From Gemmatimonadales bacterium (GTDB lineage: Bacteria; Gemmatimonadota; Gemmatimonadetes; Gemmatimonadales; GWC2-71-9), in contig DATBBW010000111.1 in assembly GCA_036270795.1 (NCBI GenBank), positions 1-59,036 of the forward strand: a DNA stretch of 59,036 bases, read 5' to 3'. The position numbers and the translations under genes are program-made. Below the pieces are notes generated by a model that saw only the letters and a list, made by a program, of their open reading frames with translations, was not told the origin of the DNA and did not search any database. Shown here in pieces: positions 10,054 through 50,950 of this stretch (position 1 is the first letter of the stretch; every line of letters begins with the position of its first letter).

Positions 10054-10069
10054 TGCAAGACGGAAGCCA
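10054..10069 (-). promoter_or_regulatory. Candidate sigma-54 promoter (TGGCTT-N5-TTGCA) for the 9952..5222 operon
   Basis: The minus strand reads TGGCTTCCGTCTTGCA, which matches 8 of the 10 defined consensus positions with GG/GC spacing exact. Confidence 0.45.
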
Positions 10070-10228
10070 CAGCCGGCACCCAGGGGCTCGGACCGGTCAC
10101 GCTGCGGTGTGGCGTCGACGCGACGCTGCGACCCCTGCATGACGATGGCGCCGCGCTGGCGAGCGTTGCGGGGCGTGTCCGGCGCTGTCTCGCGACCGGC
10201 CTGCAAGTTGCGTTGGGTAGTCGGACCA

Positions 10229-11440
10229 ATGCGCGTCTTGATCACGGACGGGAATGAGCGGGCCGCGCTGGCCGCAGCGCGATCGCTGGTCGCCGTGGGA
10301 TACGCGGTGCACGTGGCGGCCCGCGTGCGGCCGTCCCTCGCGGGCGTGTCGCAGCAGGTGCGCTCCCATACCCTCACGCGGGATCCGCTCGCGGACCCAG
10401 CCGGGTACACCGACGAGGTGCGCCGCCTGGCCCTTGACGAGGGCATCGACCTGCTCCTGCCAGTGACCGACGCGTCCCTCGAGGCCGTGCTCGAGCACCG
10501 CGCCGCGCTGCCGCTGGCGCTGCTCCTGCCCGGTCCCGATCTCGCCAGCTATCGGGCCGCCTCCGACAAGGCGCACGTGCTGACCCTGGCCGAGTCGTGC
10601 GGCTTTGGTGTCCCCGAGACACGGATCATTGCCACACCCGAGCAGGCCGAGCGGGCGCTGACGGACGCCGCCACCTGGTTCCCTGCGGTTGTCAAGCCGC
10701 ACCGGTCCGTGGTCCGCGTGGGCGCGGTGCGGCGCAAGCTCCCGGTGACGCTGGTGGCTGACCGCGCCGCGGGCCGTCGCGCGCTCGCCGCGCTCCCGCC
10801 GTCGGCGTTCCCGGTCTTGCTCCAGCGCCGAGTCACGGGTGTGGGAGAGGGATTCTTTGCACTGCGGTGGGAGGGTCGCCCGATCGCGCTGTTTGCCCAT
10901 CGCCGCCTGCGCGAGAAGCCGCCCTCGGGGGGCGTCAGCGTGTACCGCGAAAGCATCCCACTCGACGCGCAGCTGGTCGGCCCTGGACTCTGCCTGCTCG
11001 ACGCGCTGGGCTGGAACGGCGTCGCGATGATCGAGTGTAAGCGGGAACAGTCGACCGGCCGGCAGGTGGTGATGGAGGTGAACGCGCGCTTCTGGGGTTC
11101 GCTGCAGCTGGCCATCGACGCCGGCGTCGACTTTCCGGCCCTCCTGGTGCGCTGCGCGTCAGGGGAGCGCGTCCCCCCAGTCTCGCACTACCGGGTGGGC
11201 GTGCGGAGTCGCTGGTGGTGGGGGGATGTGGACCACTTGTATCAGCGGCTCCGGCGCTCGGCGGCGGAGCTGCAGTTGGAGAACGGGGCCGGTTCCCGCC
11301 TCAGGGCGCTGCGCGACTTCCTGCGCATTGCCCCAGGCCGCGACCGCGCCGAAGTCTGGCGCTGGCGCGATCCCGCGCCGTTCATCGTGGAAACGCTCCA
11401 GTGGCTTCACCTCCTCGGCACCGGCTCGTCCGGCATCTGA
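10229..11440 (+). CDS. ATP-grasp domain protein (carboxylate-amine ligase-like)
   Basis: The protein begins MRVLITDGNERAALAAARSL. It has an ATP-grasp-like core (AVVKPHRS..., LLQRRVTGVGEGFF, GVAMIECK...VMEVNARFWGS). The first 223 codons of the track ORF are an upstream artefact. Confidence 0.75.
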   Translation: MRVLITDGNERAALAAARSLVAVGYAVHVAARVRPSLAGVSQQVRSHTLTRDPLADPAGYTDEVRRLALDEGIDLLLPVTDASLEAVLEHRAALPLALLLPGPDLASYRAASDKAHVLTLAESCGFGVPETRIIATPEQAERALTDAATWFPAVVKPHRSVVRVGAVRRKLPVTLVADRAAGRRALAALPPSAFPVLLQRRVTGVGEGFFALRWEGRPIALFAHRRLREKPPSGGVSVYRESIPLDAQLVGPGLCLLDALGWNGVAMIECKREQSTGRQVVMEVNARFWGSLQLAIDAGVDFPALLVRCASGERVPPVSHYRVGVRSRWWWGDVDHLYQRLRRSAAELQLENGAGSRLRALRDFLRIAPGRDRAEVWRWRDPAPFIVETLQWLHLLGTGSSGI

Positions 11441-11479
11441 GGCAAACGGGACCGCGGTGCACCCGGCGCACCGACCGCG

Positions 11480-13369
11480 TCATTCTGCAAACAGCCGGTG
11501 CCATACGGAGAAGCACAGCAACGCCCACAGGATCCCCTCGCGATTCTGCCGCCCCGTGAGGTGCTCGCGCTGCAAGGCCTCCACGACGGCGGGGTCGAAA
11601 TAGCCGAGGCGCCGGTGGCGCTCCGGCGACAGCTCGTCGCTCAGCATGCCGCGCAGCTCGTGCCGGAGCCACGCTGACGTGGGACCGACGAAGCCACGTT
11701 TGGGCGCCCGCAGATGGGCGGCTGGCACGCGGGGGCGCAACGCGCGTCGCAGTAGCCGCTTGTTCCGCCACCACCGCCCGATCTTCACGCGCTGGGGCAC
11801 GGGGAAGACCGCCTCCACCAGGACGTGGTCCACGAGGGGCACGCGGACCTCGAGCGAGTGCGCCATCGCCAACCGGTCGCTCAGCGCGAGGATGTCGTCG
11901 GGAAGAAACGTCATGTAGTCGAAATACAGGCCGGCGGCGAGGCCCGAGGGACACCCCTGAGCGCGAAACAGCTCCTCAAACCGCGCTCGTGCGGCGCCGC
12001 CGGTGATGTTGGCGCGCAGGCCTGGCGCGTATAGCCCCGGACGCTCGCCGTTCGGGAGCCGGCTCAGCAGGCTGAGAAAGCGGTCCGGAGCGCCCCCGGT
12101 GCCGGAGCGCAGGAAGCGTTTCAGGCGGTCGACGCCGAGGGTGCCGTCCCGGGGTTCGGGGAGCAGGCGACTGGCGGCGCTGGCGACTCGGCGCAGTCCC
12201 GCCGGCAGCTTCGCGTAGTGCTCGGCGGCGAGCAGGCCGATGTGCCGTCGGTACCCGGCAAACAGCTCGTCACCACCCGTCCCCGTCAACGCAACCTTGT
12301 ACCGGCTCCCCACCGCCTGGGACAGGAGCCAGGTGGGGATCGCCGAGTCGTCGGCATGGGGCTCGTCCAAGGCCCGGACGATGGGCTCGAAGATGTTCCG
12401 CACGTCCGGGCGGATGTCGATGAGCGTGAGCTCCGCGCCGTACCGTGCGGCGAGGGTCCGAGCGAGACCCGTCTCGTCGGCCGCCGTCGCGCCGGAACCG
12501 AAGTACTGCGCCGTGAACGCGTGCGGCGGCGCCCCACCCGCCAGCGCCATGCTGGCGACGACGGCTGAGGAGTCGAGGCCACCGCTCAAGAACGCCGCCA
12601 CAGGCACGTCGCTCACGAGGTGCGCCGCCACTGAATCGTCGAGCCACTCTCGCACCCGCACCTCGGGCTGGTGCGGCCCGGCACCCGGCGCCGGCGGAAC
12701 TTGCCAGTAGCGGCGGACGGTGGTCTCCCCGGTCCGCCGCCACACGAGCGTATGCCCCGGCTCGAGCTTGCGCACGTCCAGGAATGGTGAAGCAGGAGCC
12801 GGGATGTACCCCAGCTGGAAGTACGCATCGAGGGCCTCCCAGTCGAGCGCCCGCGACGTCAGGCCCGCGGCGTGCAGCGCCTTGAGCTCGGAGGCGAAGG
12901 CGATCCCCCAGGGAGCGGTGAGGACATAGAGCGGCTTGATCCCAAACCGGTCGCGGGCCAGGAGCAACGTCTCCGCAGACGCGTCCCAAATGGCGAAGGC
13001 GAACATCCCGCGCAGGGGGGTGACGCAGTCGGGCCCGAGCTCCTCATACAGGTGCAGCACCGTCTCCGTGTCGCTGCGGGAGCGGACCGCGTGTCCGCGG
13101 GCGAGCAGACCACGACGAAGGTCTTGGTAGTTGTAGATCTCGCCGTTAAAGACGATCACCTTGGAGCGGTCTTCGTTGAAGATCGGCTGCTGGCCGCCAC
13201 TCAGGTCGATGATGCTGAGGCGCCGCATTCCCAGGCCGACGCCGCCCTGGACCCAGAGTCCCTCGTCGTCCGGGCCTCGGTGCTGCATCGCCGTGCACAT
13301 GCAGCGCACCAGCTGCGCTGACACGGGCTTGTCTCGCTCGCGATGGAGGATGCCGGCAATGCCGCACAT
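11480..13369 (-). CDS. Asparagine synthase (glutamine-hydrolysing) family amidotransferase, EPS-locus type
   Basis: The N-terminal nucleophile is MCGIAGIL (Cys2), which fixes the start at 13369. The PP-loop motif is AAFLSGGLDSS. The protein is 629 aa. Confidence 0.9.
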   Translation of the reverse strand: MCGIAGILHRERDKPVSAQLVRCMCTAMQHRGPDDEGLWVQGGVGLGMRRLSIIDLSGGQQPIFNEDRSKVIVFNGEIYNYQDLRRGLLARGHAVRSRSDTETVLHLYEELGPDCVTPLRGMFAFAIWDASAETLLLARDRFGIKPLYVLTAPWGIAFASELKALHAAGLTSRALDWEALDAYFQLGYIPAPASPFLDVRKLEPGHTLVWRRTGETTVRRYWQVPPAPGAGPHQPEVRVREWLDDSVAAHLVSDVPVAAFLSGGLDSSAVVASMALAGGAPPHAFTAQYFGSGATAADETGLARTLAARYGAELTLIDIRPDVRNIFEPIVRALDEPHADDSAIPTWLLSQAVGSRYKVALTGTGGDELFAGYRRHIGLLAAEHYAKLPAGLRRVASAASRLLPEPRDGTLGVDRLKRFLRSGTGGAPDRFLSLLSRLPNGERPGLYAPGLRANITGGAARARFEELFRAQGCPSGLAAGLYFDYMTFLPDDILALSDRLAMAHSLEVRVPLVDHVLVEAVFPVPQRVKIGRWWRNKRLLRRALRPRVPAAHLRAPKRGFVGPTSAWLRHELRGMLSDELSPERHRRLGYFDPAVVEALQREHLTGRQNREGILWALLCFSVWHRLFAE

Positions 13370-13381: not shown

Positions 13382-13397
13382 AGCAAGAGTAGCGCCA
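13382..13397 (-). promoter_or_regulatory. Sigma-54 promoter (TGGCGC-N5-TTGCT) immediately upstream of the asnB-like gene
   Basis: The minus strand reads TGGCGCTACTCTTGCT, matching 9 of 10 consensus positions. The -12 C is 14 nt from the A of the ATG, so the predicted TSS is about 2 nt upstream of the start codon. Confidence 0.6.
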
Positions 13398-13563
13398 CCC
13401 CCGCGTGCTCGGGCCTGACACACGCGGCCGCGCGCCGTGGTGCCACGGACCGGGTGGCCCCCCATGGTGGGCGCCTGGCCTTTCCAGGGTGTAGCGCCAG
13501 CGCGACAGCATCGGTCGCCGCGCCGTGCCAGCGCGACTCTTGCAACGCAGCCGGGGCACACGC

Positions 13564-16311: not shown

Positions 16312-17335
16312 GGACCCGCGACGCACGAGCGGGGCGATGACTGAGCCGCGCACCGCCCGCGGGCGCGAGACGATCGTCGTCGTCTCCATCGACACCGAGG
16401 AGGACAACTGGCGGCCCAGCCGGAACGGCGTGACCGTCGAGAACATTGCTGAGCTCCGGCGGCTGGCGCGGCTCCTCGACCGCTGGGGCGTCCGGCCCAC
16501 GTACCTCACCGCCTATCAGGTGGCGATTCGACCGCGCGCGGTGGAGACGTTGCGCGAGTGCTGCGCGGCGGGGCGCGCAGAGATCGGAGCGCATCTCCAC
16601 CCCTGGAACACGCCGCCGCTCAGCGAACCGCTCGTGCCTCGCAACTCGATGCTGAAGAATCTGCCGGCCGGGCTGCAGCTCGCCAAGCTCGAGCATCTCA
16701 CCACGGCGCTAGAGCAAGCGTTCGACTCCCGGCCCCGCGCGTTTCGCGCCGGGCGCTACGGCTTCGGGCGCGACACCGTCGCCGCGCTGCTGCGCTGCGG
16801 CTACCGCGTGGACAGCAGTGTGAGCCCCTTCGTCAATCTGGAGCGCATGGACGATGGCCCGAACTTCGTCGGCGCGCCGCTCGACGCGTATCGTCTCGCG
16901 CCGGACCGTGACGTGCGGCGCCCGGCCCCCGATGGCAGCCTGTTCGAGATTCCCCTGTCCCACGGCTTCACCCGTAAGCCGTTCGGCGTCTGGGACCGGG
17001 TGCGGCGGATGTTTGAGGCGCGGCCCTGGCGGTGGCTCCACTGTGCTGGGGTGGCCGCCCGCCTGGGGTTGGTGGACCGGCTCGAGTTGTGTCCGGAAGT
17101 GGCGTCGGTCGACGGGATGTTGACGCTGTCGCGCCAGTTGCTCGACCAGGGCGTCCGCCACCTCCAGCTGTCCTGGCACAGTCCGACGCTGCTCCCCGGC
17201 CTCAGTCCCTTCGCCGCGACGCCGGCCGATGTCGAGCGTCTGTACGCGTCCATTGCCACCTATCTCGAAGGCCTGGTGCGGATGACGTCGGTGCGATTTG
17301 CTACGATGAGCGAGGCCGCAGCCCTGTTGTGGTAA
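16295..17335 (+). CDS. Polysaccharide deacetylase-like protein (WalW-type)
   Basis: Motifs are IVVVSIDTEEDNW, GVRPTYL and EIGAHLHPWNTPP. An alternative start is ATG 16337. Confidence 0.65.
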   Translation: MGVSDEDPRRTSGAMTEPRTARGRETIVVVSIDTEEDNWRPSRNGVTVENIAELRRLARLLDRWGVRPTYLTAYQVAIRPRAVETLRECCAAGRAEIGAHLHPWNTPPLSEPLVPRNSMLKNLPAGLQLAKLEHLTTALEQAFDSRPRAFRAGRYGFGRDTVAALLRCGYRVDSSVSPFVNLERMDDGPNFVGAPLDAYRLAPDRDVRRPAPDGSLFEIPLSHGFTRKPFGVWDRVRRMFEARPWRWLHCAGVAARLGLVDRLELCPEVASVDGMLTLSRQLLDQGVRHLQLSWHSPTLLPGLSPFAATPADVERLYASIATYLEGLVRMTSVRFATMSEAAALLW

Positions 17336-17517
17336 CGCGACAGGCCTGGCGGGCGTGTGGCGGGAACGCCACGCCCGCAGGCTAGCGCTCGCCTGCGGAC
17401 TCGCGCCACCGCCGCTACTCGGCGGCCAGCCCAGGGAGGGCGGTGGGAACGGTGCGCCCGACGCCTCGGTGCCCGCACGCCGCGCCGCCGCAGAACCCCC
17501 GTCCGCGAGCATCTCCG

Positions 17518-17533
17518 TGGCACACGCCCTGCG
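17518..17533 (+). promoter_or_regulatory. Candidate sigma-54 promoter (TGGCAC-N5-CTGCG) upstream of the flippase operon
   Basis: The sequence is TGGCACACGCCCTGCG, matching 9 of 10 positions with correct GG/GC spacing. It lies 45 nt upstream of ATG 17577. Confidence 0.4.
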
Positions 17534-17669: not shown

Positions 17670-19178
17670 GTGGTTAAGAGTGTCAGCAGCAACTGGGTGA
17701 TCACGTTGGTCACGGTCGCCGCGGCGTACCTGCTCACCCCCTTCACACTCCACCGGCTCGGGGACGCCGGGTATGGTACCTGGAACCTGATCAACGCGAT
17801 CACCGGGTACCTGGCGCTGCTGGTGCTGGGCGTGCCCATGGCGTCGGTGCGCTACTTCGCGCAACACGTGGCCGAGGGCGACGTTCCCAAGTTGAATGAG
17901 GCGATCGGGAGCTGCACGGCGCTGTACCTGCTGTTGGGAGCCGTGGCGTTGCTCGTTGGGGTGGGCCTGTATTTCTTCTTCGACGTCACCTACACCATCC
18001 CGGCGACCCTCAGCCGGGACGCCCACTGGGCCTTCGCCCTCACGGTGCTGTACGTGGCCGTCGGATTCATCGGGCTCCTTCCCAACGGCGTCCTCTCGGC
18101 GCATGACGACTTCATGCCCCGCAACATGATTCGCCTCGGCGGCGTCGTGCTGCGTGTCGTTTTAACGCTCGTGCTGCTGACGTTGCGGGCGTCGCTGACC
18201 GCCCTGGCACTCGTCCAGCTGGCGTGTCTCGCCTTCGATTTCTGGCTGTGTGGGTGGCTCGTGTTGCGGCGCTATCCCGGCACCCGGATCCGGCTGGCCG
18301 ACCTCGACTGGGGCATGGTGCGGCGGATCCTCGGGTTCAGTGTCTACGTCCTGGTGCTGAACGCGGGCGCCCGCCTGTCGTTCGAGACGGACTCGCTCGT
18401 CATCGGGAAATTTCAGGACGTGAGCTCGATTCCGTACTTCACCGTCGCCAACAGCTTCATTCTCTACCTCATGGAGTTCATCATCGCGATCGCCGCCGTC
18501 GTCATGCCGCTGGCCACGCGGCTCAATACCCAGGGGCGCACGGCGGAGCTGCGCGAGGTCTTTCTCAAGTGGTCCAAGATCGCGCTCTCGCTGACGATGA
18601 TGGCTGGATTGTTCCTGATCGTCCTCGGGCCGCGGTTCATCGCGTGGTGGATCGACCCGGCGTTCGAGAGGCCGGCGGGGCAGGTGCTCCAGATCCTCAT
18701 GGTGTCGTACCTGGTGTTCCTCCCCGTGCGCGGGGTGTCGCTCCCGATCTTGATGGGGCTCGGCAAGCCGGGCTTGCCGACGATCGGGTTCCTCGCCGCC
18801 GGGCTTCTCAACCTCGGGCTGAGCATCGCGCTGGCCCGGCCGCTCGGCCTCGCCGGCGTCGCGATTGGCACGGCCATTCCCAACGTCCTGTTCGCCGCCC
18901 TCGTGTTGGTCCACGCCTGTCGGGAGCTGGAGACGCCGGTCGGGCAGTACCTGCGGTACGTGGTGCCGCGGGCGACGCTGGGTGCCCTTCCCGCGCTGGC
19001 GCTGTTGCTCTGGTTCAAGCTCGGCCTCGACGTCAGGAGTCTCGGTGAGCTGGCGGGTGCGGGCGTCGCCATGGTGTTGCTCTTCGGGGTGACCTGGGTG
19101 TTCTTCGTGTACCACAATGACCCGTACGTAGACTTGCGCGGCCGCTGGGCCGCGCTGCGAGTCGTGGGGCGACGGTGA
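17670..19178 (+). CDS. wzx: Wzx-type oligosaccharide/polysaccharide flippase (MOP superfamily)
   Basis: The protein has about 12 or more hydrophobic helices. Its N-terminus SSNWVITLVTVAAAYLLTPFTLHRLGDAGYGTWNL is typical of Polysacc_synt. The start is uncertain (GTG 17670, ATG 17577 or track 17355). Confidence 0.8.
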   Translation: MVKSVSSNWVITLVTVAAAYLLTPFTLHRLGDAGYGTWNLINAITGYLALLVLGVPMASVRYFAQHVAEGDVPKLNEAIGSCTALYLLLGAVALLVGVGLYFFFDVTYTIPATLSRDAHWAFALTVLYVAVGFIGLLPNGVLSAHDDFMPRNMIRLGGVVLRVVLTLVLLTLRASLTALALVQLACLAFDFWLCGWLVLRRYPGTRIRLADLDWGMVRRILGFSVYVLVLNAGARLSFETDSLVIGKFQDVSSIPYFTVANSFILYLMEFIIAIAAVVMPLATRLNTQGRTAELREVFLKWSKIALSLTMMAGLFLIVLGPRFIAWWIDPAFERPAGQVLQILMVSYLVFLPVRGVSLPILMGLGKPGLPTIGFLAAGLLNLGLSIALARPLGLAGVAIGTAIPNVLFAALVLVHACRELETPVGQYLRYVVPRATLGALPALALLLWFKLGLDVRSLGELAGAGVAMVLLFGVTWVFFVYHNDPYVDLRGRWAALRVVGRR

Positions 19179-26190: not shown

Positions 26191-26991
26191 TTAGGGAACC
26201 GGTGTGCCGGCCGGGGCGTCGACGGCGAAGAAAAACCGCGTGCCCCATCCCGGACGGGTCTCGACGTGCAATTCGGAGCGCATGGCGCGCACCAGTTTGC
26301 GGCAGATGGCGAGCCCCAGGCCAGAGCTGGAGAACTGCTGGCGCAGGCCGGACGACGCCTTACGGAACGGCTGAAACACTGACTCGATCGCGCCCGCGTC
26401 GAGTCCCGGGCCCGTGTCGCGGACGGAGAACTCGAGTTGGGTGGGCGTGAGGGGGCGCGCCGCGATTTCGACGAACCCGCTGTCGGTGTACTTGACGGCG
26501 TTCGTGGCGAGGTTCAGCAGGACGCGGGACAACGCGCGCGCGTGCCCGACCCGACGCTCGGGGACCGGGTAGCCGAATCGCACATCGAGCCCATGCTCCT
26601 CGGCGAGCGGCTGGATCATGCTGCGCACCGAGCCGAACATCTCGACCACGGAGAACGGCGCAGGATCGCGCTCGACCAGGCGGACACCGCCGCGGGCCAG
26701 CTCGAGCACGTCACTCGCGGCCGTGCACAAGCACAGGGCCGCACTGTAGATCAGCCCCAGCTGACGGCGCTGCGTCTCGGTGACCGCGCCGCCCTGGCCC
26801 TGCTGCATCGCCTCCGCGAGAAACAAAATCGACGTCAGCGGGGAGCGCAGGTCGTGCGCCATCTCGACGACCAGCTCGAGCCCGTTGGGACCGGCGAGAC
26901 AGGCGCTGAGATCGGGCGGCTCGAGGTCCGGCTGAGGCGCGCGGGCCGGTTGCGGCCGCCACTCGAGTTGCTCCGCCGTGTTGGTTCTCAT
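26191..26991 (-). CDS. Soluble histidine kinase with no recognisable sensor or TM domain (HisKA + HATPase_c only)
   Basis: The H-box is MAHDLRSPLTSILFLAEA, the N-box is LLNLATNAVKYT, and the G-boxes are DTGPGL and GLGLAICRKLV. SD GGAAGGAG precedes ATG 26991. Confidence 0.85.
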   Translation of the reverse strand: MRTNTAEQLEWRPQPARAPQPDLEPPDLSACLAGPNGLELVVEMAHDLRSPLTSILFLAEAMQQGQGGAVTETQRRQLGLIYSAALCLCTAASDVLELARGGVRLVERDPAPFSVVEMFGSVRSMIQPLAEEHGLDVRFGYPVPERRVGHARALSRVLLNLATNAVKYTDSGFVEIAARPLTPTQLEFSVRDTGPGLDAGAIESVFQPFRKASSGLRQQFSSSGLGLAICRKLVRAMRSELHVETRPGWGTRFFFAVDAPAGTPVP

Positions 26992-28648: not shown

Positions 28649-28883
28649 CCGAAAGTGGTTTCGCGCTCTCTCCTACGCAGGGTTCGGGCCACGCTGTCGC
28701 GACCTCGCAGCACCGCCTGCGCGCGACCGTGGCGCACCAACCTGCGTCACCGGCCGTGGGCGGGTGCACCGATTTGCGGCGGTTCGGCCGGTGTGGCGCG
28801 CCCTGGTGTGGCTGGCTCGCGGTATCGGACTTGCGACTGTGCCGGGAGCTAGCGCCTCATGCCCTAACCAGATCGGAGCCGTA

Positions 28884-32218: not shown

Positions 32219-32522
32219 GCAGGAACTCCCCCCCACGGTTTCCACCGATGCGACCGGGCGCCAGGGTGATCTGCCTGCAAGCTCGGGGCCGTAGCGCGGT
32301 GCGCGCGCGCCGCCTGCCGCGGAGCGGGCGGCGCGCTCGGAATGCAGCGTGAGCGCAACGGAGTGACGCCCCGGCGCGGCCCGGGCGGCCCCTCGGGGGC
32401 GCCTGCTAAGCCGTTGTCGGCCCGTGCGCTAGACGCGTGCGACGGGAGGGGTACGCGGGTCAGGCCTCAAACTTGAAGGGACAGAACGCCCGAGCGAGCG
32501 CGTAATCGGTGAGGAATGGCGC

Positions 32523-36452: not shown

Positions 36453-36787
36453 GGCGCGCAACGCTGTCTCTCGAACCAAGGAGGTGCCCCAGGTGACTGA
36501 CGTGGCGATGAGCGGGGAGCGGACCGCACGCCGCTCCCCGCGTCGCCCGGTGTGCCTGCGTGCTCGCTCTGGGCCCGGTGCCACTGGGCCATTTTCGTCT
36601 TGCAGCGGTTGGGGCGATCCGCTGGCCGATCAGGCGGGGAGGCGCACGAGGGGCGGCCACCCCGCCCGTGGTGCGCGCCCGCCCGCACAAGGCCCCAAAC
36701 TGCGGCTGCGGCACACCGAGCACGGCGGCGCCACACCACCGCCTCCCTCAGTGGACAGGTTCCCTGCCTTCCGAGTCTCAGCCTTCC

Positions 36788-36803
36788 TGGCACCACCTTT
36801 GCA
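36788..36803 (+). promoter_or_regulatory. Perfect-consensus sigma-54 promoter with no obvious downstream ORF (orphan)
   Basis: The sequence is TGGCACCACCTTTGCA, matching 10 of 10 defined positions. The next convincing CDS is 520 nt downstream. Confidence 0.6.
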
Positions 36804-37265
36804 ATGACACGTGCCCGAGCTCGCACGAGGACCTGTGTTGATCCTCGAGACGAGCCCCGTGGACCCGCTGACGGCGGGTGATCCGCCGCAGCCCACGGAC
36901 TGCAGGGCAGGGCATGGGTGGGGAGTTCGGGCCGACTGAGTTGACTGCTCGTGGATTGCGTTCCTCGGCTACCCGGGGTGGAGCAGAGGTACCCCGAGCA
37001 GTGGACCGACTCCCCCTCGCCCCGCTCGCGCGTGTCACCGATCCGGATCGCCCCGCCGCGCGGCGGCAGCGGCCGTGCTCGACCCTCTAGCTCCCATCGC
37101 TCGTGAATGTCACGTGAGCGCGGGCCACCGTTGCGCCCAATTTTGGTGCGTGGCGACTTGGCCAGCGCTTCAGTTCGCTGCAGTAGGCCTTGCCGACGAT
37201 CAGGTGTCATTATCGTAACGTGATATAGATCAGTCGCTTACGGTATCAGACGTGGGGAACGTCTG

Positions 37266-37281
37266 TGGCACTAGCCTTGCT
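37266..37281 (+). promoter_or_regulatory. Perfect-consensus sigma-54 promoter of the rsbR-like operon
   Basis: The sequence is TGGCACTAGCCTTGCT, matching 10 of 10. The predicted TSS is near 37292, which is 33 nt upstream of ATG 37325. A 7-bp inverted repeat cagacgt/acgtctg abuts it (37247..37265). Confidence 0.7.
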
Positions 37282-37324
37282 GTGGCGTCGGGGCAACATT
37301 TGTCCCCGACGAGGATCCCGAGCC

Positions 37325-38233
37325 ATGGCTAAGCAACAGCAAGAGCGGACGTCTCCCGCGGCCGGCCTGCCTGCCCAAACGCAGGACACCGTCGCGCTAC
37401 TGCGCGAACTGGTGGCTCACCTGCGCCAGAACCGCACCCAACTGCGCGAAGAGTGGGCCCGCCGTATCACCCGGGCCGAACTGCTCACGGCGATGACAGA
37501 GCAGGAAATCTTCGCCGAAGCGACCTCGGTGTACGACAACTACGTCGAGGCCCTCGAGACGGGGACGTTCGAGGCGTTGCAGGCGTACGCGCGCAACCTG
37601 TCAGAGCGCATCATCCCGCGCGGCGTCGAGACGCACGAAGTCGTCGGGATCGTGCTGCTGCTGCGCGACGTGCTGGCCCGCTCGCTGTTCGCCAAGTACC
37701 ACGAAGACTTCGATAAACTCAACCGCATTCTCGACGCGTACGAGCCCGCCGCGAACCGCATCGCCAACACCGTGGCCGTGGGCTTTGTGCAGGAACGCGA
37801 GCGCATCATCCGCCAGCAACAGGAGGCGATTCGCGAGCTCTCGACGCCGGTGCTCCAGGTGCGCGAACGGCTGCTCATCCTCCCCATCATCGGCGTGATC
37901 GATCCGCAGCGCAACCGGCAGCTCACCGAACAGCTGCTGCGGGCGATCCGCACCAACCGCGCCAAGGTCGTTGTGATCGACATCACCGGTGTGGCGGCGA
38001 TGGACTCCAATGTGGCGAACCAACTGGTGCAAACCGTCGAAGCCTCGCGGCTTTTGGGCGCCACGGTCATCGTCACCGGCCTCTCCCCCGAGATCGCGCA
38101 GACGCTCGTCACCATCGGTGTGGACTTGAGCGAAATGGCGACGGTCGGCGACCTGCAAGGCGGTATCGAGGAAGCGGAGCGGCTGCTCGGCTACAAGGTC
38201 CTGCCATTGGACGAGCTGACCCCGAAGGCCTGA
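37325..38233 (+). CDS. rsbR: RsbR-like stressosome sensor (N-terminal helical/globin-like domain + STAS)
   Basis: The STAS region is LLILPIIGVIDPQR...VVVIDITGVAAMDSNVANQL...VTGLSPEIAQTLVTIGV. Both Thr residues sit in the contexts of the RsbT-phosphorylated threonines of B. subtilis RsbR. Confidence 0.8.
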   Translation: MAKQQQERTSPAAGLPAQTQDTVALLRELVAHLRQNRTQLREEWARRITRAELLTAMTEQEIFAEATSVYDNYVEALETGTFEALQAYARNLSERIIPRGVETHEVVGIVLLLRDVLARSLFAKYHEDFDKLNRILDAYEPAANRIANTVAVGFVQERERIIRQQQEAIRELSTPVLQVRERLLILPIIGVIDPQRNRQLTEQLLRAIRTNRAKVVVIDITGVAAMDSNVANQLVQTVEASRLLGATVIVTGLSPEIAQTLVTIGVDLSEMATVGDLQGGIEEAERLLGYKVLPLDELTPKA

Positions 38234-38260
38234 GCTCGACTCACTCCGGCACCGGAGGGC

Positions 38261-38656
38261 GTGGTGGAAGTTCCGATCCTCAAGCAGGGCCAGTACCTCA
38301 TCGCCTCGATCCAGTCCGCGCTGACCGACGCGGATCTGTCGCAGCTGCGCGAGGCGCTGATCCAACGGGTGGGGAAGTTCCGGGCCCGCGGCGTCATCGT
38401 CGACGTCACCGCGCTCGACGTCATGGACTCGTTCGCCGTGCGCACCCTGCGCGATATCGCCCACATGGCGCGCCTGCGCGGCGCCGAGACCGTCATCGTC
38501 GGGATCCAGCCCGAGGTCGCCTTCGCCATGGTGCAACTCGGGTTGACGCTCAAAGGGGTCGCCACCGCGCTCGATCTCGAGGAGGGGTTGGCCTTTTTGG
38601 ACCGCCACGCCCAAGGCCGTCTCGACCAGGTGAAGGGCCCGATCACCCGTGGCTGA
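38261..38656 (+). CDS. rsbS: RsbS-like single-STAS stressosome scaffold protein
   Basis: The sequence VPILKQGQYLIASIQ...VIVDVTALDVMDSFAVR...GIQPEVAFAMVQLGL...TALDLEEGLAFL is collinear with B. subtilis RsbS as I recall it, including the phospho-Ser in the DSF context. GGAGGG is upstream. Confidence 0.85.
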   Translation: MVEVPILKQGQYLIASIQSALTDADLSQLREALIQRVGKFRARGVIVDVTALDVMDSFAVRTLRDIAHMARLRGAETVIVGIQPEVAFAMVQLGLTLKGVATALDLEEGLAFLDRHAQGRLDQVKGPITRG

Positions 38657-39059
38657 TGCCGTCCGGGTCCCGATCGCGGCCGACGTGGACGTGGTGGACG
38701 CGCGCCAACGCGGCCGCGAGCTGGCAGCGGAAGCCGGGTTCTCGAGCGGGGACCAAACCGTGATCGCCGCCGCGATCTCGGAAATCGCGCGCAACATCCT
38801 GATGTACGCGAAACGGGGCGAGGTCGCGGTCCGCATCGTCGCCAACGGCGACCGCCAGGGCGTCGAGGTGGTGGCGCGCGATCAGGGCCCCGGGATTGCC
38901 GATGTGGCGCGCGCCTTACAGGACGGGTATTCGACGTCGGGCGGCTTGGGCCTGGGCATGCCCGGCGCCCGGCGACTCATGGACGATTTCGACGTCACGT
39001 CGGCCGTGGGCCAGGGCACAACCGTGACGATGCGGAAATGGCGGCCCCTGACCGGCTGA
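38649..39059 (+). CDS. rsbT: RsbT-like serine kinase (GHKL ATPase, anti-sigma-factor-kinase type)
   Basis: The start overlaps rsbS by 8 nt. Motifs are ISEIARNILMYA (N-box), ARDQGPGI and GGLGLGMPGARRLMD. The protein is 136 aa. Confidence 0.8.
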   Translation: MADAVRVPIAADVDVVDARQRGRELAAEAGFSSGDQTVIAAAISEIARNILMYAKRGEVAVRIVANGDRQGVEVVARDQGPGIADVARALQDGYSTSGGLGLGMPGARRLMDDFDVTSAVGQGTTVTMRKWRPLTG

Positions 39060-39688
39060 GCGGCGGGGCGAATGCTCCCCACCTCATCGAGTACGGCGTC
39101 GCCACGCTCGCGCTTGCCGGCGAAACCGAATCGGGCGATCTCCACCTCGTGCAACCCGCCGGCACGGGCGTGCTGGTGTCCGTCGTCGACGGTCTCGGCC
39201 ACGGCCCGGAAGCGGCCGCCGCGGCACGCGCGGCCATCACTGCGTTGGCCCGACAGGCACCCGCGCCCGTGCTGACCCTGCTCCAGGCGTGCCACCAGGC
39301 GCTCATCGGGACTCGCGGCGTGGTGATGAGCCTCGCCAGCTTCGATCGCGCCGATGGCGCGATGACCTGGGTGGGCGTGGGCAATGTCGAGGGGGTGCTC
39401 CTCTACACCGACCCCGGGGCTCGTCAGGCGCACACCACCCTCGTCACCCGCGGTGGCATCGTCGGCGGGGAGCTGCCAAAGCTCCACGCCGAAGTCATCT
39501 CGATCTCCCCCGGCGACACCCTGATCTTTGCCACCGACGGGATCAAGGCCGCGTTTGCCGACGGCCTGCCGGTCGAGCTGGCGCCCCAAGAACTGGCCGA
39601 GCTCATTCTCGCGCGCCACTCCAAGGGAACGGATGATGCGCTCGTCTTGGTGGCCCGGTACACGGGCGGCCTCCGAGGCGCGGCGTGA
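39038..39688 (+). CDS. Stand-alone PP2C/SpoIIE-family phosphatase (RsbX-like)
   Basis: Motifs are [25 protein letters not shown] and IFATDGI. The protein is about 216 aa with no N-terminal RsbU-type domain. It overlaps rsbT by 22 nt. Confidence 0.75.
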
Positions 39689-41097
39689 CGCAATCGGTGC
39701 CGCTGCAATCATCGCCGGCGCCGGCGCCGCCCCAGCCGCCGAGCCCGCGGCTGCTGCAGGTGCTCGTCGTCACGGCCGAGGAGGGGGACGGGCTGCTCCC
39801 GAGTCTGCGCCAGTGGGCGGCCGATGCCGGCGTGGCGGTGCAGGCAGTTCCTGACCTCCCCCGCGCCGTGCGCCAACTCGCCGCCCAGCCTTGGGATATC
39901 GTGCTCGCGATCCTGGGCGAGCGCGCCGATGAAGATCTCACGTGGTGGGCGGACGCGCTGCGGGGGGCCGCAGGCACTCCGCGGCTCCTCGTGGCCGCGC
40001 TGGCGCCGTCCCTGGGGCTGGTGCTGCGCGCCGAGAAGCTCGGCGTGCTCGACCTGCTGTCCCTGCCGCTGCGCCGCGACGACATCGTCCGGGCCTTGGG
40101 CCGGGTGCGCGCCGCGGCCGCGGAAGTGGCCGTGCCGCTTCCGGAGGTGCAGCACCACGCGGTGGGGCCCTACGCCCTGGTGGGCCAGAGCCCCGCCATG
40201 CTCGAGGTCTACAAGCTGAGCGCGCGCGTGGCGGCGAGTAGCGCGACCGTCCTGATCCAGGGGGAGTCCGGCACCGGCAAGGAGGTCGTCGCGCGCGCCA
40301 TCCACGCGAACGGAGCCAAGGCTGCGGGCCCGTTCGTCGCCGTCAACTGCGCCGCCATCCCCGAGAACCTGCTCGAGAGCGAGTTGTTCGGCCACGAGAA
40401 GGGTGCGTTCACCGGGGCCGTCACCCGTAAGATCGGGCGCTTCGAGCAAGCCGCCGGGGGCACGCTGTTCCTCGACGAAATCGCGGACATGGGTCTCGCG
40501 CTGCAGTCGAAAATCCTGCGCGCCGTGCAGGAACGCGAGATCGAGCGGCTCGGCGGCGCCGGGTCGATCCCCGTCGAAGTGCGCCTCATCGCGGCCACGA
40601 ACCGCGACCTGCGCCAGGCGATTGCGCAGGGCCGCTTCCGGGAGGACCTGTACTATCGCCTCGCCGTGGTGACGATCCAACTCCCCACCTTGGCCAACCG
40701 GGGCGAGGACCTCGTCCTCCTGACCGCCTATTACGCCCGCCTCTTCGCCGAGCGCTATGGGAAGCGGCTGCGGGCCATCTCGGATCGCGCCCTGGAGCTG
40801 CTGCGCCACCACGCGTGGGTGGGGAACGTGCGGGAATTGCGCAACGTCGTGGAGCGCGCCGTCATCGTCGCGACGGACGACACGCTGCGCGCGGAGCACC
40901 TGCCGGAGGAGTTGCGGGGTGAGGACACCTCCCACGCCGACGGGCCGCAGGGCACCATGCTCACGCTGGCAGAGCTCGAGGCGCGCCATATCGCCCGGGT
41001 CCTGGCCCACACCGACGGGCAGATCGGCGCTGCCGCGGAGCTGCTCGGGATCCACCGCAACACGCTCACCCGGAAGATGAAGGAATACGGTCTGTGA
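39685..41097 (+). CDS. Sigma-54 enhancer-binding protein with an N-terminal pseudo-receiver domain
   Basis: There is a GTGA start/stop overlap. Walker A is GESGTGKE, and GAFTGA and [15 protein letters not shown] are present. The C-terminal HTH is [21 protein letters not shown]. The N-terminal REC-like fold lacks DD, the phospho-Asp, T and K. Confidence 0.88.
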
Positions 41098-42392
41098 GCG
41101 AGCCGCTCCTCCCCCCGCTGCGCGTCGAAAAGGCGGTCGAGCTGCTCCCCGACGTCGAGGCGCTGGCGCCGCTGCGTGCCCTGCTCGTGTCCATCGCCCG
41201 CGCCGACGAACGCTCCCGTTGGTCGAGCTCCGGTCCCTATCTGACACTGGGGAAGCGCGGGGTCGAGCCCGACGAACTGCGGCGCAGCGTGCCCCACGTG
41301 CTGCATCAGGTCACCGACCACGTGCGGAGCCTGTATGAGGCGTACGTGGGCGCGCTCGACGCGGTGCAACGGGGGGACGTGGCCCGGGCGGTCGCGGCAC
41401 TCCTGCACGCCGGCCGGCTGGAGGAGAGCGTGGGCCGGCTAGCGCAGAGCCGGGCCTGGTACGAGCGGGCGCGGAGCCTGGCCGCGACGCTGCCGGATCG
41501 CCGACCCGAGGTCGAATTGCTCGGCTCGCTCGGTCGGGTGGGGCTCGCGCTTGGCGATGCGGCCGAGGGCGCGCGGTATTTCCAGCGTGCCCTGGCGCTC
41601 GCCGAAGCAGAGTTCGACCAAGCCGGCGCGATCGCGGCGTGCGAGGGACTCGGGGACGCGGCACTGCGGCAGGGGGAATGGGCCGGCGCGCAAGCGTGGT
41701 ATGTGCGGGGACTGCGCCTGGCTGAGGCGTCGGACGATGCCCGCGGCGTGGGACGTCTGGAACGCCAGCTGGGCGCCGTGGCGCGCCGCCAGGGCGACCT
41801 CGTCCGCGCGGGCAACCACCTGCGCCGGGCGCGGGAGCGGCTGGAAGGAGCGGGGGCGGCGGAGGAGCTGGCCCACGTGCTCAACGTCCAGGGGCAACTC
41901 GACGCCCAGTCGGGACGCCACCAGGCAGCGTCGGCTGCGTACCGCGAGGCCCTGGCCTGGATGCAACGCGCGCCGCGCGACCTGGCCCTCGAGCTCGCCA
42001 TTCGGCTCGGCCTGAGCGAGCTACTCCTCGAGGCGACCCGGTACCTCGAGGCCGACGAGGAGCTGCGGCGCGCCGAGCAAGCAGCCATCGCCGGCAACCT
42101 CACCCTCCCCCTGGTGCAGATCTACACCCTGATGGGCAAGCTGCGCGGCGCCCAGGACGACGAGACGGGGTTCGTCTTCTTCGAGCAGGCGGTTGAGCTG
42201 TGCCGGACGCTCGGCCAATCCCTCGAGGCGGTGGCGCAGGTCTACTTCGAGTACGGCCTGTTCCGCGAGCGGCTGGGCCAGCTCGAGGAAGCGCGCGCCT
42301 ATCTCGAGCGGGCCCGCGGCATCTTCGAGTCGCTGGGGGAGGCGAGGGGACGCGACCGCGTGGAAACCGAGCTGAAGAAGCTGTCGGCCTAG
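41094..42392 (+). CDS. TPR-repeat protein (432 aa)
   Basis: There is a GTGA overlap with the bEBP gene. The sequence shows repeated A/L-rich 34-residue periodicity (W..A...Y...L.LA....D..G...). Confidence 0.75.
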
Positions 42393-45142: not shown

Positions 45143-45158
45143 TGGCACCGCCCTTGCG
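45143..45158 (+). promoter_or_regulatory. Perfect-consensus sigma-54 promoter of the 45214..46577 operon
   Basis: The sequence is TGGCACCGCCCTTGCG, matching 10 of 10 defined positions. The predicted TSS is near 45169, which is 45 nt upstream of ATG 45214. Confidence 0.65.
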
Positions 45159-45213: not shown

Positions 45214-45840
45214 ATGTCGAATCGCAGACACCTCAGCGTCCTGGCTAGTGCTGTCGCGGGGGCGCTCGCGCTGGTTGCCTGTAGCGACCAGACGAACGTC
45301 ACGACGGTGCCCAAACGCCCGAGCTTTTGGGGCGGCGTCACCGAGTGCGTCACCGGGAAGTGGACGGGCGGCGGTCGGATGGACCCGCCCAACCCAGACG
45401 TCCCAGATGGCGCAACGGGAACGAGCACGATGCAGGGGAAGGTCACGTTCGGGTTCAACGTCTTTCTCGGGACGGACCCGGTTAGCGGGCAATGCATCGT
45501 CACCAAGGGTGAGATCCAAGTCAACCACCACCCCTCGCACACCAGCTGGCACGTCTCGATCCACAACGGGGTGGATGACTTCAATGAAACCGTGTTCGCC
45601 GAGATCATCTCCCCGGACGCATCGGGCAGAGGCGTGTGTCTCGTCGTGGGCGAGACGCCCATCACGGCGCGCGTCGACGGGCAAAAAGGCACGGACCAGG
45701 TGCAAATGGAGCTCTGCGACAACGACCCCGACGCCCCGCAAAACAGCCGCACCGATGCGATGCGGTGGATCACCGCGGGGCACGGAGACACGGACCTCAC
45801 GTACTTGACAGGCGGTAACATCGTCGATCACGGGGCGTGA
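45214..45840 (+). CDS. Hypothetical lipoprotein (208 aa)
   Basis: GGGAGG lies 7 nt upstream. The lipobox is ALALVAC. I recognise no family. The first 293 codons of the track ORF are an artefact. Confidence 0.65.
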   Translation: MSNRRHLSVLASAVAGALALVACSDQTNVTTVPKRPSFWGGVTECVTGKWTGGGRMDPPNPDVPDGATGTSTMQGKVTFGFNVFLGTDPVSGQCIVTKGEIQVNHHPSHTSWHVSIHNGVDDFNETVFAEIISPDASGRGVCLVVGETPITARVDGQKGTDQVQMELCDNDPDAPQNSRTDAMRWITAGHGDTDLTYLTGGNIVDHGA

Positions 45841-45902: not shown

Positions 45903-46577
45903 ATGAACGACATGAGAATACACGGGACGCACCACCTCGCCGCCCTCGGTGTGGTCGTCGCCCTGACCGCAGGATTGGCGGTGGCGGGGACCGCGCAGAC
46001 CGTCTCGGGCCAGGCGTTCAGCACGTACGTCAACACATCGGTCGCGTCCAGCATCCAGTCGCCGCTGGTGGTGCTGCCCGCCGTCTCGGGGACGGATGGC
46101 GCCGAAGCGGATGCAGAGGGCGCTGGGGTGACGGTCGCCAACACGCTGTCATCTGATTTCCTGAACAGTATCACGTCGGGCGAACTCGACACGAGCGCGG
46201 CCGGCGCGCAGAGCACCGCGAGTGCGGCCGATATCAACGTCCTGAACGGGCTGATCACCGCGGATGAAGTGATCGCCAACGCGACGAGCAGCCGCACCGG
46301 GAGCGGGGCCGTCAGCAACGCCGACGGTTCGACGTTCCAGAACTTGGTGGTGGCCGGCGTGGCGCTGACGACGGGCGATGGACCGGTGGCGCCGAACACG
46401 ACCATCGCCTTGTCTGGGGTCGGTTACGTCGTGTTAAACGAACAGACCCTCTCGGGGGACGGCGTCACGACCAGCGGGATCACGGTGAACATGATTCACG
46501 TGTACCTACAGAGCGCCCTCGGCGGCCCGACCGGCGAGATCATCGTCGGTTCGGCGACGACGTCCGTGGGTTCCTGA
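45903..46577 (+). CDS. Hypothetical secreted Ala/Thr/Ser/Gly-rich protein (224 aa)
   Basis: GGAAGGAG lies about 9 nt upstream of ATG 45903. The signal peptide ends in AVAGTAQT. The composition is beta-rich and low in charge, and there is no recognisable C-terminal sorting signal. Confidence 0.6.
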   Translation: MNDMRIHGTHHLAALGVVVALTAGLAVAGTAQTVSGQAFSTYVNTSVASSIQSPLVVLPAVSGTDGAEADAEGAGVTVANTLSSDFLNSITSGELDTSAAGAQSTASAADINVLNGLITADEVIANATSSRTGSGAVSNADGSTFQNLVVAGVALTTGDGPVAPNTTIALSGVGYVVLNEQTLSGDGVTTSGITVNMIHVYLQSALGGPTGEIIVGSATTSVGS

Positions 46578-48342: not shown

Positions 48343-48761
48343 CCGAGACTGCGAAAGTACCCCACCACGTCCGCGTTGCGGTAGAAGTACCACGCCGCGA
48401 GCGCGCCGAGCCCGAGGGCCTGCAGCGCCGCCCGCCAGGCGAGCGCCGCGGGGACGCGACCAGTCACCCCGACCGCGACCCCATAGACCGCAACCGTGGT
48501 CCAGAGCACCATGACGACATGCCGAGACCAGCGCTTGCGAGCGCGGAACCCATACGCGATCACCGCCATGAGCACGCCCATGGAGAGGAACAGCGGGCCC
48601 GCTACGCGCAGCCATTCGCCGCTCGTGACCGGTCGGCCGGCGATGCCGAAGGAGCCGACGCCGAGCGCCGCGAGGACCAGCAGCAGGCCGGCCCCCGCGG
48701 CGAACGCCGCCGCGAGCCGCCCGCCGAGCCGCATCAGGAACGGCATCTCCACCGCCGACAT
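48339..48761 (-). CDS. Small membrane protein (140 aa, about 4 TM helices)
   Basis: Only the last 140 codons of the 528-aa track ORF look protein-like and hydrophobic. The rest is antisense to 48825..49943. The stops overlap convergently with qor by 4 nt. Confidence 0.5.
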   Translation of the reverse strand: MSAVEMPFLMRLGGRLAAAFAAGAGLLLVLAALGVGSFGIAGRPVTSGEWLRVAGPLFLSMGVLMAVIAYGFRARKRWSRHVVMVLWTTVAVYGVAVGVTGRVPAALAWRAALQALGLGALAAWYFYRNADVVGYFRSLG

Positions 48762-48824
48762 GATGCTCAATCGGTCCCGTGAACGAGCGGCCGTCAAGAC
48801 TGGGGCGATGTATCTTGAGGGCGC

Positions 48825-49943: not shown

Positions 49944-49950
49944 TCACGCC

Positions 49951-50730: not shown

Positions 50731-50746
50731 GGTCTGCGCCGCAGCC

Positions 50747-50760
50747 CCGCAACGTTGCGG
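50747..50760. promoter_or_regulatory. Perfect 14-bp palindrome CCGCAACGTTGCGG, about 175-190 nt upstream of the 50935 sigma-54 promoter (candidate activator site, or a minimal stem after the SDR gene)
   Basis: The sequence is self-complementary over all 14 nt. It lies 17 nt after the SDR stop codon. Confidence 0.3.
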
Positions 50761-50934
50761 CCGTGCCGGGGGTCTAGCGGCGGCCGGTGCGGATTCCGAG
50801 CGGGCGCCGCCTCCGCGGCTGCTTGATTAAAGCGTCTGGCCCGATGCGGCAGTTGAGAACCTGCGGCCTGGCCTCCTCCGGGGAACGCCCGATTGTTGCA
50901 TTCATGCTACAGCCGACGTGGATACCGCTCCGCA

Positions 50935-50950
50935 TGGCGCATAAATTGCA
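50935..50950 (+). promoter_or_regulatory. Sigma-54 promoter (TGGCGC-N5-TTGCA) of the precursor-peptide cassette
   Basis: The sequence is TGGCGCATAAATTGCA, matching 9 of 10 defined positions. The predicted TSS is near 50961, which is 51 nt upstream of ATG 51012. Confidence 0.65.

Follow-up and report, generated by a model that had tools for sequence, protein, structure and literature searches.

Ten candidate sigma-54 promoters and two linked enhancer-binding proteins suggest overlapping polysaccharide and stressosome circuits in a Gemmatimonadales genome

We analyzed a 59,036-nucleotide stretch of DNA from an uncultured Gemmatimonadales bacterium (positions 1 to 59,036 of contig DATBBW010000111.1, GenBank assembly GCA_036270795.1; hereafter the window), which carries a Wzx/Wzy-type polysaccharide locus (7880-36452), a stressosome operon and ten candidate -24/-12 promoters for sigma-54 (RpoN). 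We consider it probable that the window contains at least ten functional sigma-54 promoters, arranged in two linked circuits that are each centered on a locally encoded enhancer-binding protein. The parts of this proposal differ in strength. At least eight of the ten sites very likely function as promoters; the assignment of each promoter class to one of the two activators is an even call. Transcription starts, the pairing of activators with sites and the direction of cross-regulation are predictions made from the DNA.

In the first of the two proposed circuits, the polysaccharide locus would be transcribed largely from weak promoters at 10054, 13382, 17518, 28676, 28820 and 32276. A dyad, TGTNGC-N6-GCNACA, located near several of these promoters, is the predicted binding site of an activator with a receiver (REC) domain encoded at 27011-28648. 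The neighboring kinase would phosphorylate this activator, which would act on its own promoter as well. In the second circuit, the stressosome operon (37325-42392) encodes an activator with a GAFTGA motif and a degenerate, receiver-like N-terminus, which would drive the perfect-consensus promoters at 37266, 36788 and 45143. Copies of the dyad at the 50935 promoter and over the predicted transcription start of rsbR would cross-wire the two circuits.

The assembly is a metagenome-assembled genome (MAG) of 2.62 Mb in 246 contigs (78.8% complete, 70.7% G+C), in which the window is contig C111. Genes were called genome-wide with a codon-usage model trained on the long open reading frames (ORFs) of the genome, which resulted in 2525 genes and 9% intergenic DNA, and the genes of the window were named with Pfam and NCBIfam. 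Chance expectations were derived from a first-order Markov model of intergenic DNA. Sites were also scored with a matrix that ignores the spacer between the -24 and -12 elements, and only genes with an upstream spacer of at least 60 nt were scored (25 in the window, 1006 genome-wide).

All ten proposed sites keep the GG-N10-GC core, and three of them match the consensus at 10 of 10 positions. These three exact copies of TGGCAC-N5-TTGC (36788, 37266 and 45143) are all located on the plus strand; shuffled versions of the window contain 0.11 exact matches on average, and none of 100 shuffles reaches three. The initial annotation of the window had called for a genome scan comparing intergenic with coding hits. 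Five of the seven exact matches in the genome fall in the 9% of the DNA that is intergenic, where 0.35 are expected. With one mismatch allowed, 27 intergenic matches are observed genome-wide against 13.8 expected. In the window, the one-mismatch sites are 13382 (minus strand), 17518 (plus) and 50935 (plus); the other two one-mismatch matches (4443 and 18866) fall within genes and probably arose by chance. Measured against the Markov expectation, the exact sites are therefore significant, about half of the one-mismatch sites may be chance matches, and an 8-of-10 match is meaningless on its own.

The sites are concentrated in the window, which holds 3.7% of the intergenic DNA, yet three of the five exact intergenic sites (p = 5e-4) and 6 of the 32 intergenic sites with at most one mismatch (p = 1e-3). 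Sites scoring at least 12 precede 8 of the 25 scored genes in the window versus 15 of 981 elsewhere (Fisher p = 1.7e-8), and with a threshold of 10 the numbers are 12 of 25 versus 32 of 981, but the window scores are inflated because some window sites were used in training the matrix; the count of exact matches is therefore the independent, unbiased test. Among the matches to the full-length matrix that score at least 16 genome-wide, 9 of 14 are intergenic. Outside the window, sigma-54-like promoters were found 40 nt upstream of glnA (C136:8538-10013) and 137 nt upstream of an hsp20 gene (C119:804-1196), two classic sigma-54 targets that serve as internal positive controls, and the scan also finds sites before a glycosyltransferase gene and genes for several large secreted proteins. 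The same density is seen in five relatives, whose syntenic regions have a site before 5-8 of the 14-20 genes scored, and it is therefore a lineage trait.

All seven -24/-12 sites listed in the initial annotation are present, and three further conserved sites had been missed (28676 on the minus strand, 28820 on the plus strand and 32276 on the minus strand). The site at 50935 lies on the plus strand, and a minus-strand reading of it would be wrong. An estimate of roughly 17 TGGCAC hexamers on the plus strand was too low (there are 23, nine of them intergenic), but it was rightly noted that only three continue as N5-TTGC and that all three are intergenic. The listed sites are, as claimed, intergenic and correctly oriented, and at every one except 36788 the position before the orthologous gene is kept in relatives while the flanking DNA has diverged. 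By these measures, the sites appear to behave as real sigma-54 promoters.

The weaker matches might instead be mostly chance words in 70% G+C DNA, or sigma-54 binding sites that do not promote transcription, so that only the three exact sites are promoters and the density is a selection effect of scanning many windows. About half of the intergenic one-mismatch matches and essentially all two-mismatch matches are indeed expected by chance, two one-mismatch matches fall in coding DNA, and a site of moderate score at 32517 before glmS, which is not kept in four relatives, was rejected. Nevertheless, each weak site keeps its position and its GG/GC core in three to seven orthologous loci with diverged flanks, the syntenic regions of relatives are equally dense, and an independent dyad motif clusters beside the weak sites. 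We regard this reading of the weaker sites as very improbable.

Conservation is observed at each of the promoters proposed for the polysaccharide locus. The site TGGCTTCCGTCTTGCA (10054..10069, minus strand; 8 of 10 positions) heads the Wzy operon, which consists of genes for an oxidoreductase/epimerase (7880-9952), a Wzy_C polymerase (6523-7857) and a GT4 glycosyltransferase (5222-6508). The pattern TGGC-N8-CTTGCA occurs in all five loci compared, and the gene products of the four orthologous loci are 56-58% identical; in the relatives (L155-L158) a GTG codon is located 14 nt past the TTGC. On the plus strand, TGGCACACGCCCTGCG (17518..17533) heads the flippase operon, with a gene for a Wzx-like flippase (17670-19178) followed by a GDSL-like gene, and the word [TC]GGCACAnGCnnTGC is kept in four of four orthologous loci, 47-137 nt 5' of the start. 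Two further minus-strand sites (22842 and 26071), with scores of 10-13 and dyads of two mismatches in their vicinity, could not be shown to be conserved and are outside the proposed set.

The asnB gene provides a natural control. Its site, TGGCGCTACTCTTGCT (13382..13397, minus strand), lies 13 nt before the ATG of the gene for an AsnB-like amidotransferase (11480-13369, minus strand). Its start codon is set by an N-terminal cysteine that the enzyme requires: the protein begins with MCGIAG, in which Cys2 is the nucleophile. In seven loci where asnB heads its unit, the ATG follows the GG/GC core by 13-17 nt and lacks a Shine-Dalgarno sequence. Six loci have the gene at an internal operon position, and there it has a GGAGG Shine-Dalgarno sequence but no sigma-54 site. 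From this spacing, transcription is predicted to start 2-6 nt before the start codon, leaving a leader of about 2-6 nt.

Between the genes for the REC activator and a Wzc-like protein, the 235-nt intergenic region forms a clean footprint, with two outward-facing promoters and three conserved boxes between them. One promoter, TGGCCCGAACCCTGCG (28676..28691, minus strand), precedes the REC activator gene and is kept in four relatives. The other, CGGTATCGGACTTGCG (28820..28835, plus strand), heads the gene for a Wzc-like chain-length determinant/tyrosine kinase (28884-31280), and is kept in four relatives as CGGTATCGGA[CA]TTGC. The boxes are a degenerate dyad, TGTCGCGACCTCGCAGCA (28695-28712), that abuts the REC activator promoter, a GCACCAA..TGC box (about 28732-28746) and a 17-nt box, GTGCACCGATTTGCGGC (28764-28780), which is identical in five of five genomes. 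The 17-nt box is similar to a -24/-12 word with a spacer lengthened by one base. Further along, CGGCCCCGAGCTTGCA (32276..32291, minus strand) precedes a REC-GGDEF gene (31277-32245), and the word CGGCCCCGnGTTTGCA is kept there in four relatives.

The machinery required for such promoters is encoded in the genome. RpoN is represented by a Sigma54_DBD match of 213 bits with an intact RpoN box (ARRTVAKYR); the gene is cut by a contig end and was seen without its N-terminal part. Strong PF00158 AAA+ domains of enhancer-binding proteins number eight in the genome, of which two are in the window. These two had been recognized in the initial annotation, and Pfam and NCBIfam agree on both, with GAFTGA intact in each. 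The first (27011-28648, minus strand) has a REC-AAA+-HTH_8 architecture and forms a two-component pair with the adjoining HisKA/HATPase_c kinase of 266 aa (26191-26991, minus strand). The second (39685-41097, plus strand) is encoded in the stressosome operon and lacks a working receiver. Its N-terminal part of about 160 residues (39685-40180) has no Pfam match, and the acidic pocket of receivers is absent, while the REC activator has the sequence VLIVDDEHT.

Dyads of the form TGTNGC-N6-GCNACA with at most one mismatch occur ten times in the window, against 2.6 expected, and eight of the ten (10108, 13490, 17325, 17356, 28695, 37281, 50894 and 51041) adjoin sigma-54 sites. Genome-wide, 36 of 141 dyads are intergenic, and half of these (18 of 36) lie within 260 nt of a sigma-54 match. 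The copy upstream of the 10054 promoter (10108..10125, one mismatch) is a candidate enhancer; in four of four relatives a zero-mismatch copy is located at -47 from the TGG of the Wzy-operon promoter, with fixed arms and a variable center. A perfect dyad, TGTAGCGCCAGCGCGACA (13490..13507), lies about 95-110 nt upstream of the asnB promoter, and two dyads spaced 31 nt apart (17325-17342 and 17356-17373) precede the flippase promoter, which is preceded by dyads in four of four orthologous loci. Another perfect copy, TGTTGCATTCATGCTACA (50894..50911), is found 24 nt upstream of the promoter of a peptide cassette. At rsbR the placement is different: the dyad TGTGGCGTCGGGGCAACA (37281..37298) begins at the last -12 base of the promoter and overlaps the expected transcription start, and TGTTGC-N6-GCAACA with a variable center recurs at about +15 from the TGG (+16 in one case) in 12 of 14 rsbR loci.

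Within the limit of one mismatch, no dyad was found at the promoters at 36788 and 45143, nor at 10 of the 11 lipoprotein promoters examined. The dyad class thus comprises the weak -24/-12 words of the polysaccharide units and the peptide cassette, plus rsbR with its dyad downstream of the promoter; the dyad-free class comprises the perfect-consensus promoters of a small RNA (sRNA) and the lipoprotein pair. This distribution fits two promoter classes better than one. A search for a shared NtrC-type enhancer (GCACC/GGTGC half-sites, TGCRCC-N7-GGYGCA and the box GTGCACCGATTTGCGGC) returned no pattern linking the promoters. Further pairs of dyad and sigma-54 site were observed outside the window, in contigs C87 (about 1.7-19.5 kb) and C89 (about 7.0-7.1 kb), where the neighboring genes encode very large, repeat-containing secreted proteins and a GT4 glycosyltransferase, the latter in a divergent promoter pair.

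The stressosome operon (37325..42392, plus strand) encodes RsbR-like and RsbS-like proteins, an RsbT-like kinase, a PP2C phosphatase, the second enhancer-binding protein and a TPR protein. Pfam identifies STAS, STAS, HATPase_c_2 and SpoIIE domains within this one operon, as in a stressosome module, and the gene order is kept in at least 65 loci. An RsbU/RsbV/RsbW-sigma-B output was not found in the operon, where the next genes are those of the sigma-54 activator and the TPR protein. The perfect-consensus promoter TGGCACTAGCCTTGCT (37266..37281, plus strand) is located 43 nt before rsbR. Conservation over the 1 kb that precedes rsbR is 10-50% in 25 Gemmatimonadales loci, and the sole strongly conserved block (37265-37284, 87%) is this promoter. 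Among 65 distinct loci with enough flanking sequence, the promoter is present in 12 of 13 with an in-operon activator versus 0 of 52 without one, which fits autoregulation, with the caveat that the 13 activator loci form one clade. The promoter is absent upstream of rsbR in other phyla, and is specific to the clade with the in-operon activator.

Two partly conserved boxes, TGCGCCCAATTTTGGTGCG and GCGCTTCAGTTCGCTGC (37132..37182), are located 85-135 nt upstream of the rsbR promoter and may constitute an enhancer, or the first box may be the tail of a terminator. This first box (37132-37150, GCGCC-T-run-GTGC) directly follows the sRNA hairpin or a post-lipoprotein hairpin in many relatives, and may therefore double as a terminator U-tract. 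A separate observation concerns the RsbR-like protein itself (37325-38233; loci L038-L101), which has 82-93% identity, along almost the entire protein, to its counterparts in MAGs labeled as Acidobacteriota, Ignavibacteria, Planctomycetota, Gammaproteobacteria, Bacteroidota, Nitrospirota, Dormibacterota and Verrucomicrobiota. Across the same phyla RsbS is 66-94% identical, and RsbT and PP2C are conserved far less. Such cross-phylum conservation of RsbR is far above the expectation for a sensor protein.

Downstream of a terminator that closes the polysaccharide operon (36572-36600), the perfect-consensus promoter TGGCACCACCTTTGCA (36788..36803, plus strand) precedes a structured RNA. No credible ORF was found downstream of it in any frame, and no sigma-70-like promoter was predicted in the spacer. 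The promoted units are as described in the initial annotation, with 36788 predicted to head an RNA and not a protein-coding unit. A hairpin of about 100 nt (36917..37018, plus strand) is a candidate sigma-54-dependent sRNA. In the first eight sequences aligned, it forms a long hairpin in which 11 of 32 pairs change on both sides. In an alignment of 17 sequences, 92% of cells pair and compensatory change is observed in 22 of 32 pairs; this alignment was fitted to the covariance model, which favors structure somewhat. None of 500 shuffles reaches the observed level of covariation, and slid controls pair at 50-55%. The conserved loops are ACUGAGCUGA and GGAUUGCG. Searches of Rfam gave no match, either with the whole window at gathering thresholds or with 36780-37160 at E values up to 1.

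The covariance model finds the RNA in 11 of 151 genomes of the family, representing six genera, and not always adjoining rsbR. The distance between 36788 and rsbR varies, and the site is present in only some relatives. In 8 of 12 sRNA loci, a strong sigma-54 site precedes the RNA by 16-113 nt. An orthologue of the stressosome-linked activator is encoded in 9 of the 11 genomes with the sRNA versus 12 of the 140 others (Fisher p = 1.6e-7; 151 genomes). Most sRNA loci have a U-rich run after the hairpin, but none is present in the window or in the closest relative, and read-through towards rsbR is therefore possible in these two.

The third perfect-consensus promoter, TGGCACCGCCCTTGCG (45143..45158, plus strand), heads a lipoprotein gene (45214-45840) and a gene for a choice-of-anchor P protein (45951-46577). 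Full-length orthologues of the lipoprotein from 11 relatives (41-64% identity) all have the site, 52-74 nt before the start. An alignment of the DNA upstream of this promoter reveals only weakly conserved GC-rich boxes and no dyad. In six relatives (G004:C33, G016:C56, G002:C315, G003:C4, G009:C11 and G005:C47) the lipoprotein gene is located directly upstream of rsbR; in the window it lies 8 kb downstream of rsbR, and the sRNA takes the upstream position here and in some other genomes.

The initial annotation proposed a single RpoN-centered regulon. A conserved sigma-54-centered region with two linked activators is indeed present, but the dyad is lacking at 36788 and 45143. In a single regulon the REC activator would drive all of the promoters, and the stressosome-linked protein would act elsewhere or only modulate. 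The dyad is shared by the polysaccharide, peptide-cassette and rsbR promoters, the REC activator family has members in most genomes of the bacterial family (109 of 151), and the two activator genes are syntenic: close REC activator orthologues lie 4-17 kb from the stressosome-linked activator on the same contig in at least 11 genomes of several genera, all of which would suit such an arrangement. The absence of the dyad from the sRNA and lipoprotein promoters does not, and the rsbR promoter tracks the in-operon activator rather than the REC activator, the sRNA tracks the stressosome-linked activator, and the position of the rsbR dyad over the transcription start suits repression better than activation. 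The evidence favors two overlapping circuits, and a single regulon driven by the REC activator is in our view quite improbable.

The wiring could also be the reverse of the one that we propose, with the stressosome-linked activator binding the dyad, such that envelope stress would switch the polysaccharide promoters directly, and the REC activator using other boxes such as GTGCACCGATTTGCGGC. The best-conserved, perfectly palindromic dyad is located at the promoter of the stressosome operon itself, and GTGCACCGATTTGCGGC is invariant between the REC activator gene and wzc; both observations speak for this reversal. Against it, the stressosome-linked activator is encoded in only 21 of 151 family genomes, and a degenerate dyad abuts the promoter of the REC activator gene. 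We regard the reversed wiring as unlikely, and prefer the dyad as the binding site of the REC activator and the dyad-free promoters as targets of the stressosome-linked activator.

Several points weigh against the two circuits and the promoter set on which they are built. Intergenic two-mismatch matches are at chance level genome-wide (217 observed versus 209 expected), and for the site at 10054, with its two mismatches, the evidence is conservation and nothing else. For asnB in the window, the leader would measure a mere 2 nt or so, an unusual length for sigma-54. The six other enhancer-binding proteins of the genome could serve any of these sites, and no common enhancer was definable for the three perfect-consensus promoters. 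The dyad is degenerate at wzc, and with one mismatch allowed it is absent from most asnB orthologues; at the peptide cassette it is present in the window and absent from the two relatives; over the rsbR transcription start it could equally be an RNA hairpin. With respect to the statistics, the gene boundaries rest genome-wide on a custom codon-usage caller, the scoring matrix has the training bias described above, the window was selected out of a very large scan, such that a clustering p of about 1e-3 is weak alone, and the co-occurrence tests ignore kinship, the activator-bearing loci being one clade.

The remaining features of the window fall in line along the contig. In addition to the units described above, the polysaccharide locus encodes an ATP-grasp protein, acyl- and acetyltransferases, further GT4 and GT2 glycosyltransferases, a priming transferase, GlmS, a Wza-like exporter and a UDP-GlcNAc 2-epimerase; its other members are the oxidoreductase/epimerase, the Wzy_C polymerase, a GT4 glycosyltransferase, the AsnB-like amidotransferase, the flippase, the short histidine kinase, the REC-AAA+-HTH_8 activator, the Wzc-like tyrosine kinase and the REC-GGDEF protein. 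Downstream of the stressosome operon are genes for an amidase, the lipoprotein and the choice-of-anchor P protein, then housekeeping genes, and then the peptide cassette (51012-54144). The cassette encodes a 47-aa precursor, an HprK-like kinase, PqqD and a fusion of a transglutaminase core with a nucleotidyltransferase; no cyclase is present in it. The precursor has a lasso-like leader (KRPFVAPTL). Its promoter, TGGCGCATAAATTGCA (50935..50950, plus strand), is located 61 nt before the precursor ORF (51012-51155). In L153, from a genome of a different family, a GG-N10-GC site is likewise found about 57-60 nt before a homologous precursor, and L152 has such a site too, giving three of three loci.

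When all elements are read jointly, a picture emerges that we put forward only tentatively, as it is considerably less certain than the two circuits themselves. In this soil clade of Gemmatimonadales, the stressosome may signal to a pseudo-receiver sigma-54 activator instead of sigma-B, and this activator may act on its own operon, an undescribed sRNA and the lipoprotein pair. The polysaccharide regulator may bind the dyad over the stressosome transcription start, so that envelope-stress sensing and slime production would be reciprocally wired via sigma-54, and some of the transcripts may be leaderless. Gemmatimonadota are abundant in soil and almost unstudied genetically, and the locus offers a testable map of surface-polysaccharide control, with ten putative promoters, two activators, one enhancer word and one small RNA. 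The locus is also a naturally occurring example of a stressosome that seems to feed into sigma-54 in place of sigma-B, and the conserved sites and boxes can be used for annotating related MAGs.

Among known systems, the PrsK/PrsR/PrsT regulon with its PEP-CTERM box in Proteobacteria (Haft et al., 2006, PMC1569441) resembles the polysaccharide locus in several respects. In both, an NtrC-type response regulator and a kinase are encoded within the polysaccharide locus, there are many short units, each with its own -24/-12 promoter downstream of a conserved activator box, and a gene for a TPR protein lies in the vicinity. Among NCBIfam models, those associated with XrtA/PEP-CTERM give the best matches to the AsnB-like, Wzc-like, export and priming-transferase proteins of the window. 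In contrast, the two activators score 373.0 and 356.5 bits, below the PrsR cut-off of 502.6 (TIGR02915), and the TPR protein scores 17.5 bits, with a PrsT cut-off of 312.2 (TIGR02917). The kinase is soluble and consists of 266 aa, with no PrsK model among its best matches, whereas PrsK is transmembrane. The enhancer word is TGTNGC-N6-GCNACA, and the targets are biosynthetic operons instead of genes for PEP-CTERM proteins. An exosortase (EpsH/XrtA; PF09721) had no match in the 78.8%-complete assembly, and its absence is therefore unproven. Because of the sub-cut-off activators, the lack of PrsT, the short soluble kinase and the lack of an exosortase in the assembly, we rejected membership in the Prs/PEP-CTERM system.

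The arrangement of the locus has a parallel in a different phylum. In the syp locus of Vibrio fischeri, each operon has its own sigma-54 promoter and enhancer, and the response-regulator activator SypG is encoded within the locus. The proposed first circuit is similar, with sigma-54 promoters and enhancers per operon and one response-regulator activator inside the polysaccharide locus. The likeness drawn here is one of arrangement, and syp is not known to include a stressosome or a second activator. The syp partner-switching proteins SypA and SypE act after transcription.

RsbR-RsbS-RsbT stressosome modules are known from the sigma-B pathway of Bacillus and are also combined with other output modules. 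As in these modules, a complete RsbR/RsbS/RsbT/PP2C set heads the operon in the window. Unlike in Bacillus, the next gene encodes a sigma-54 enhancer-binding protein in place of RsbU/V/W/sigma-B, and the operon has a sigma-54 promoter of its own. Leaving aside papers that use terms from both fields, a full-text literature search returned no study in which a stressosome is linked to a sigma-54 activator; it also returned no study of a sigma-54 regulon in Gemmatimonadota.

For the candidate sRNA, precedents are the sigma-54-dependent Qrr sRNAs of Vibrio, with LuxO, and GlmY, with GlrR. As in those systems, an orphan perfect -24/-12 promoter adjoins an activator gene and precedes a short, structured, non-coding RNA, here a predicted one. 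The RNA of the window differs in that it has no Rfam match in sequence or structure and consists of a single long hairpin with conserved internal loops. Qrr sRNA is also treated in a preprint (bioRxiv 10.1101/2021.07.01.450815).

A role of sigma-54 as controller of the bacterial exterior has been put forward on the basis of comparative genomics (Francke et al., 2011, PMC3162934). That work describes a statistical trend across phyla and not a particular locus, and a Gemmatimonadota regulon was worked out neither there nor in a 2025 survey based on position-specific scoring matrices (PMC12316311). The window follows the trend, with sigma-54 promoters before genes for exopolysaccharide biosynthesis and transport, for a lipoprotein and for precursor supply. 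The density of sites, which the initial annotation considered unusual, is high for this genome but has precedent at surface-polysaccharide loci (PMC1569441; PMC3162934). The control of the cell surface encoded here is thus dense but of a familiar kind, a lineage variant of the known sigma-54 control of the exterior, and it brings a new phylum under the concept of a cell exterior governed by sigma-54.

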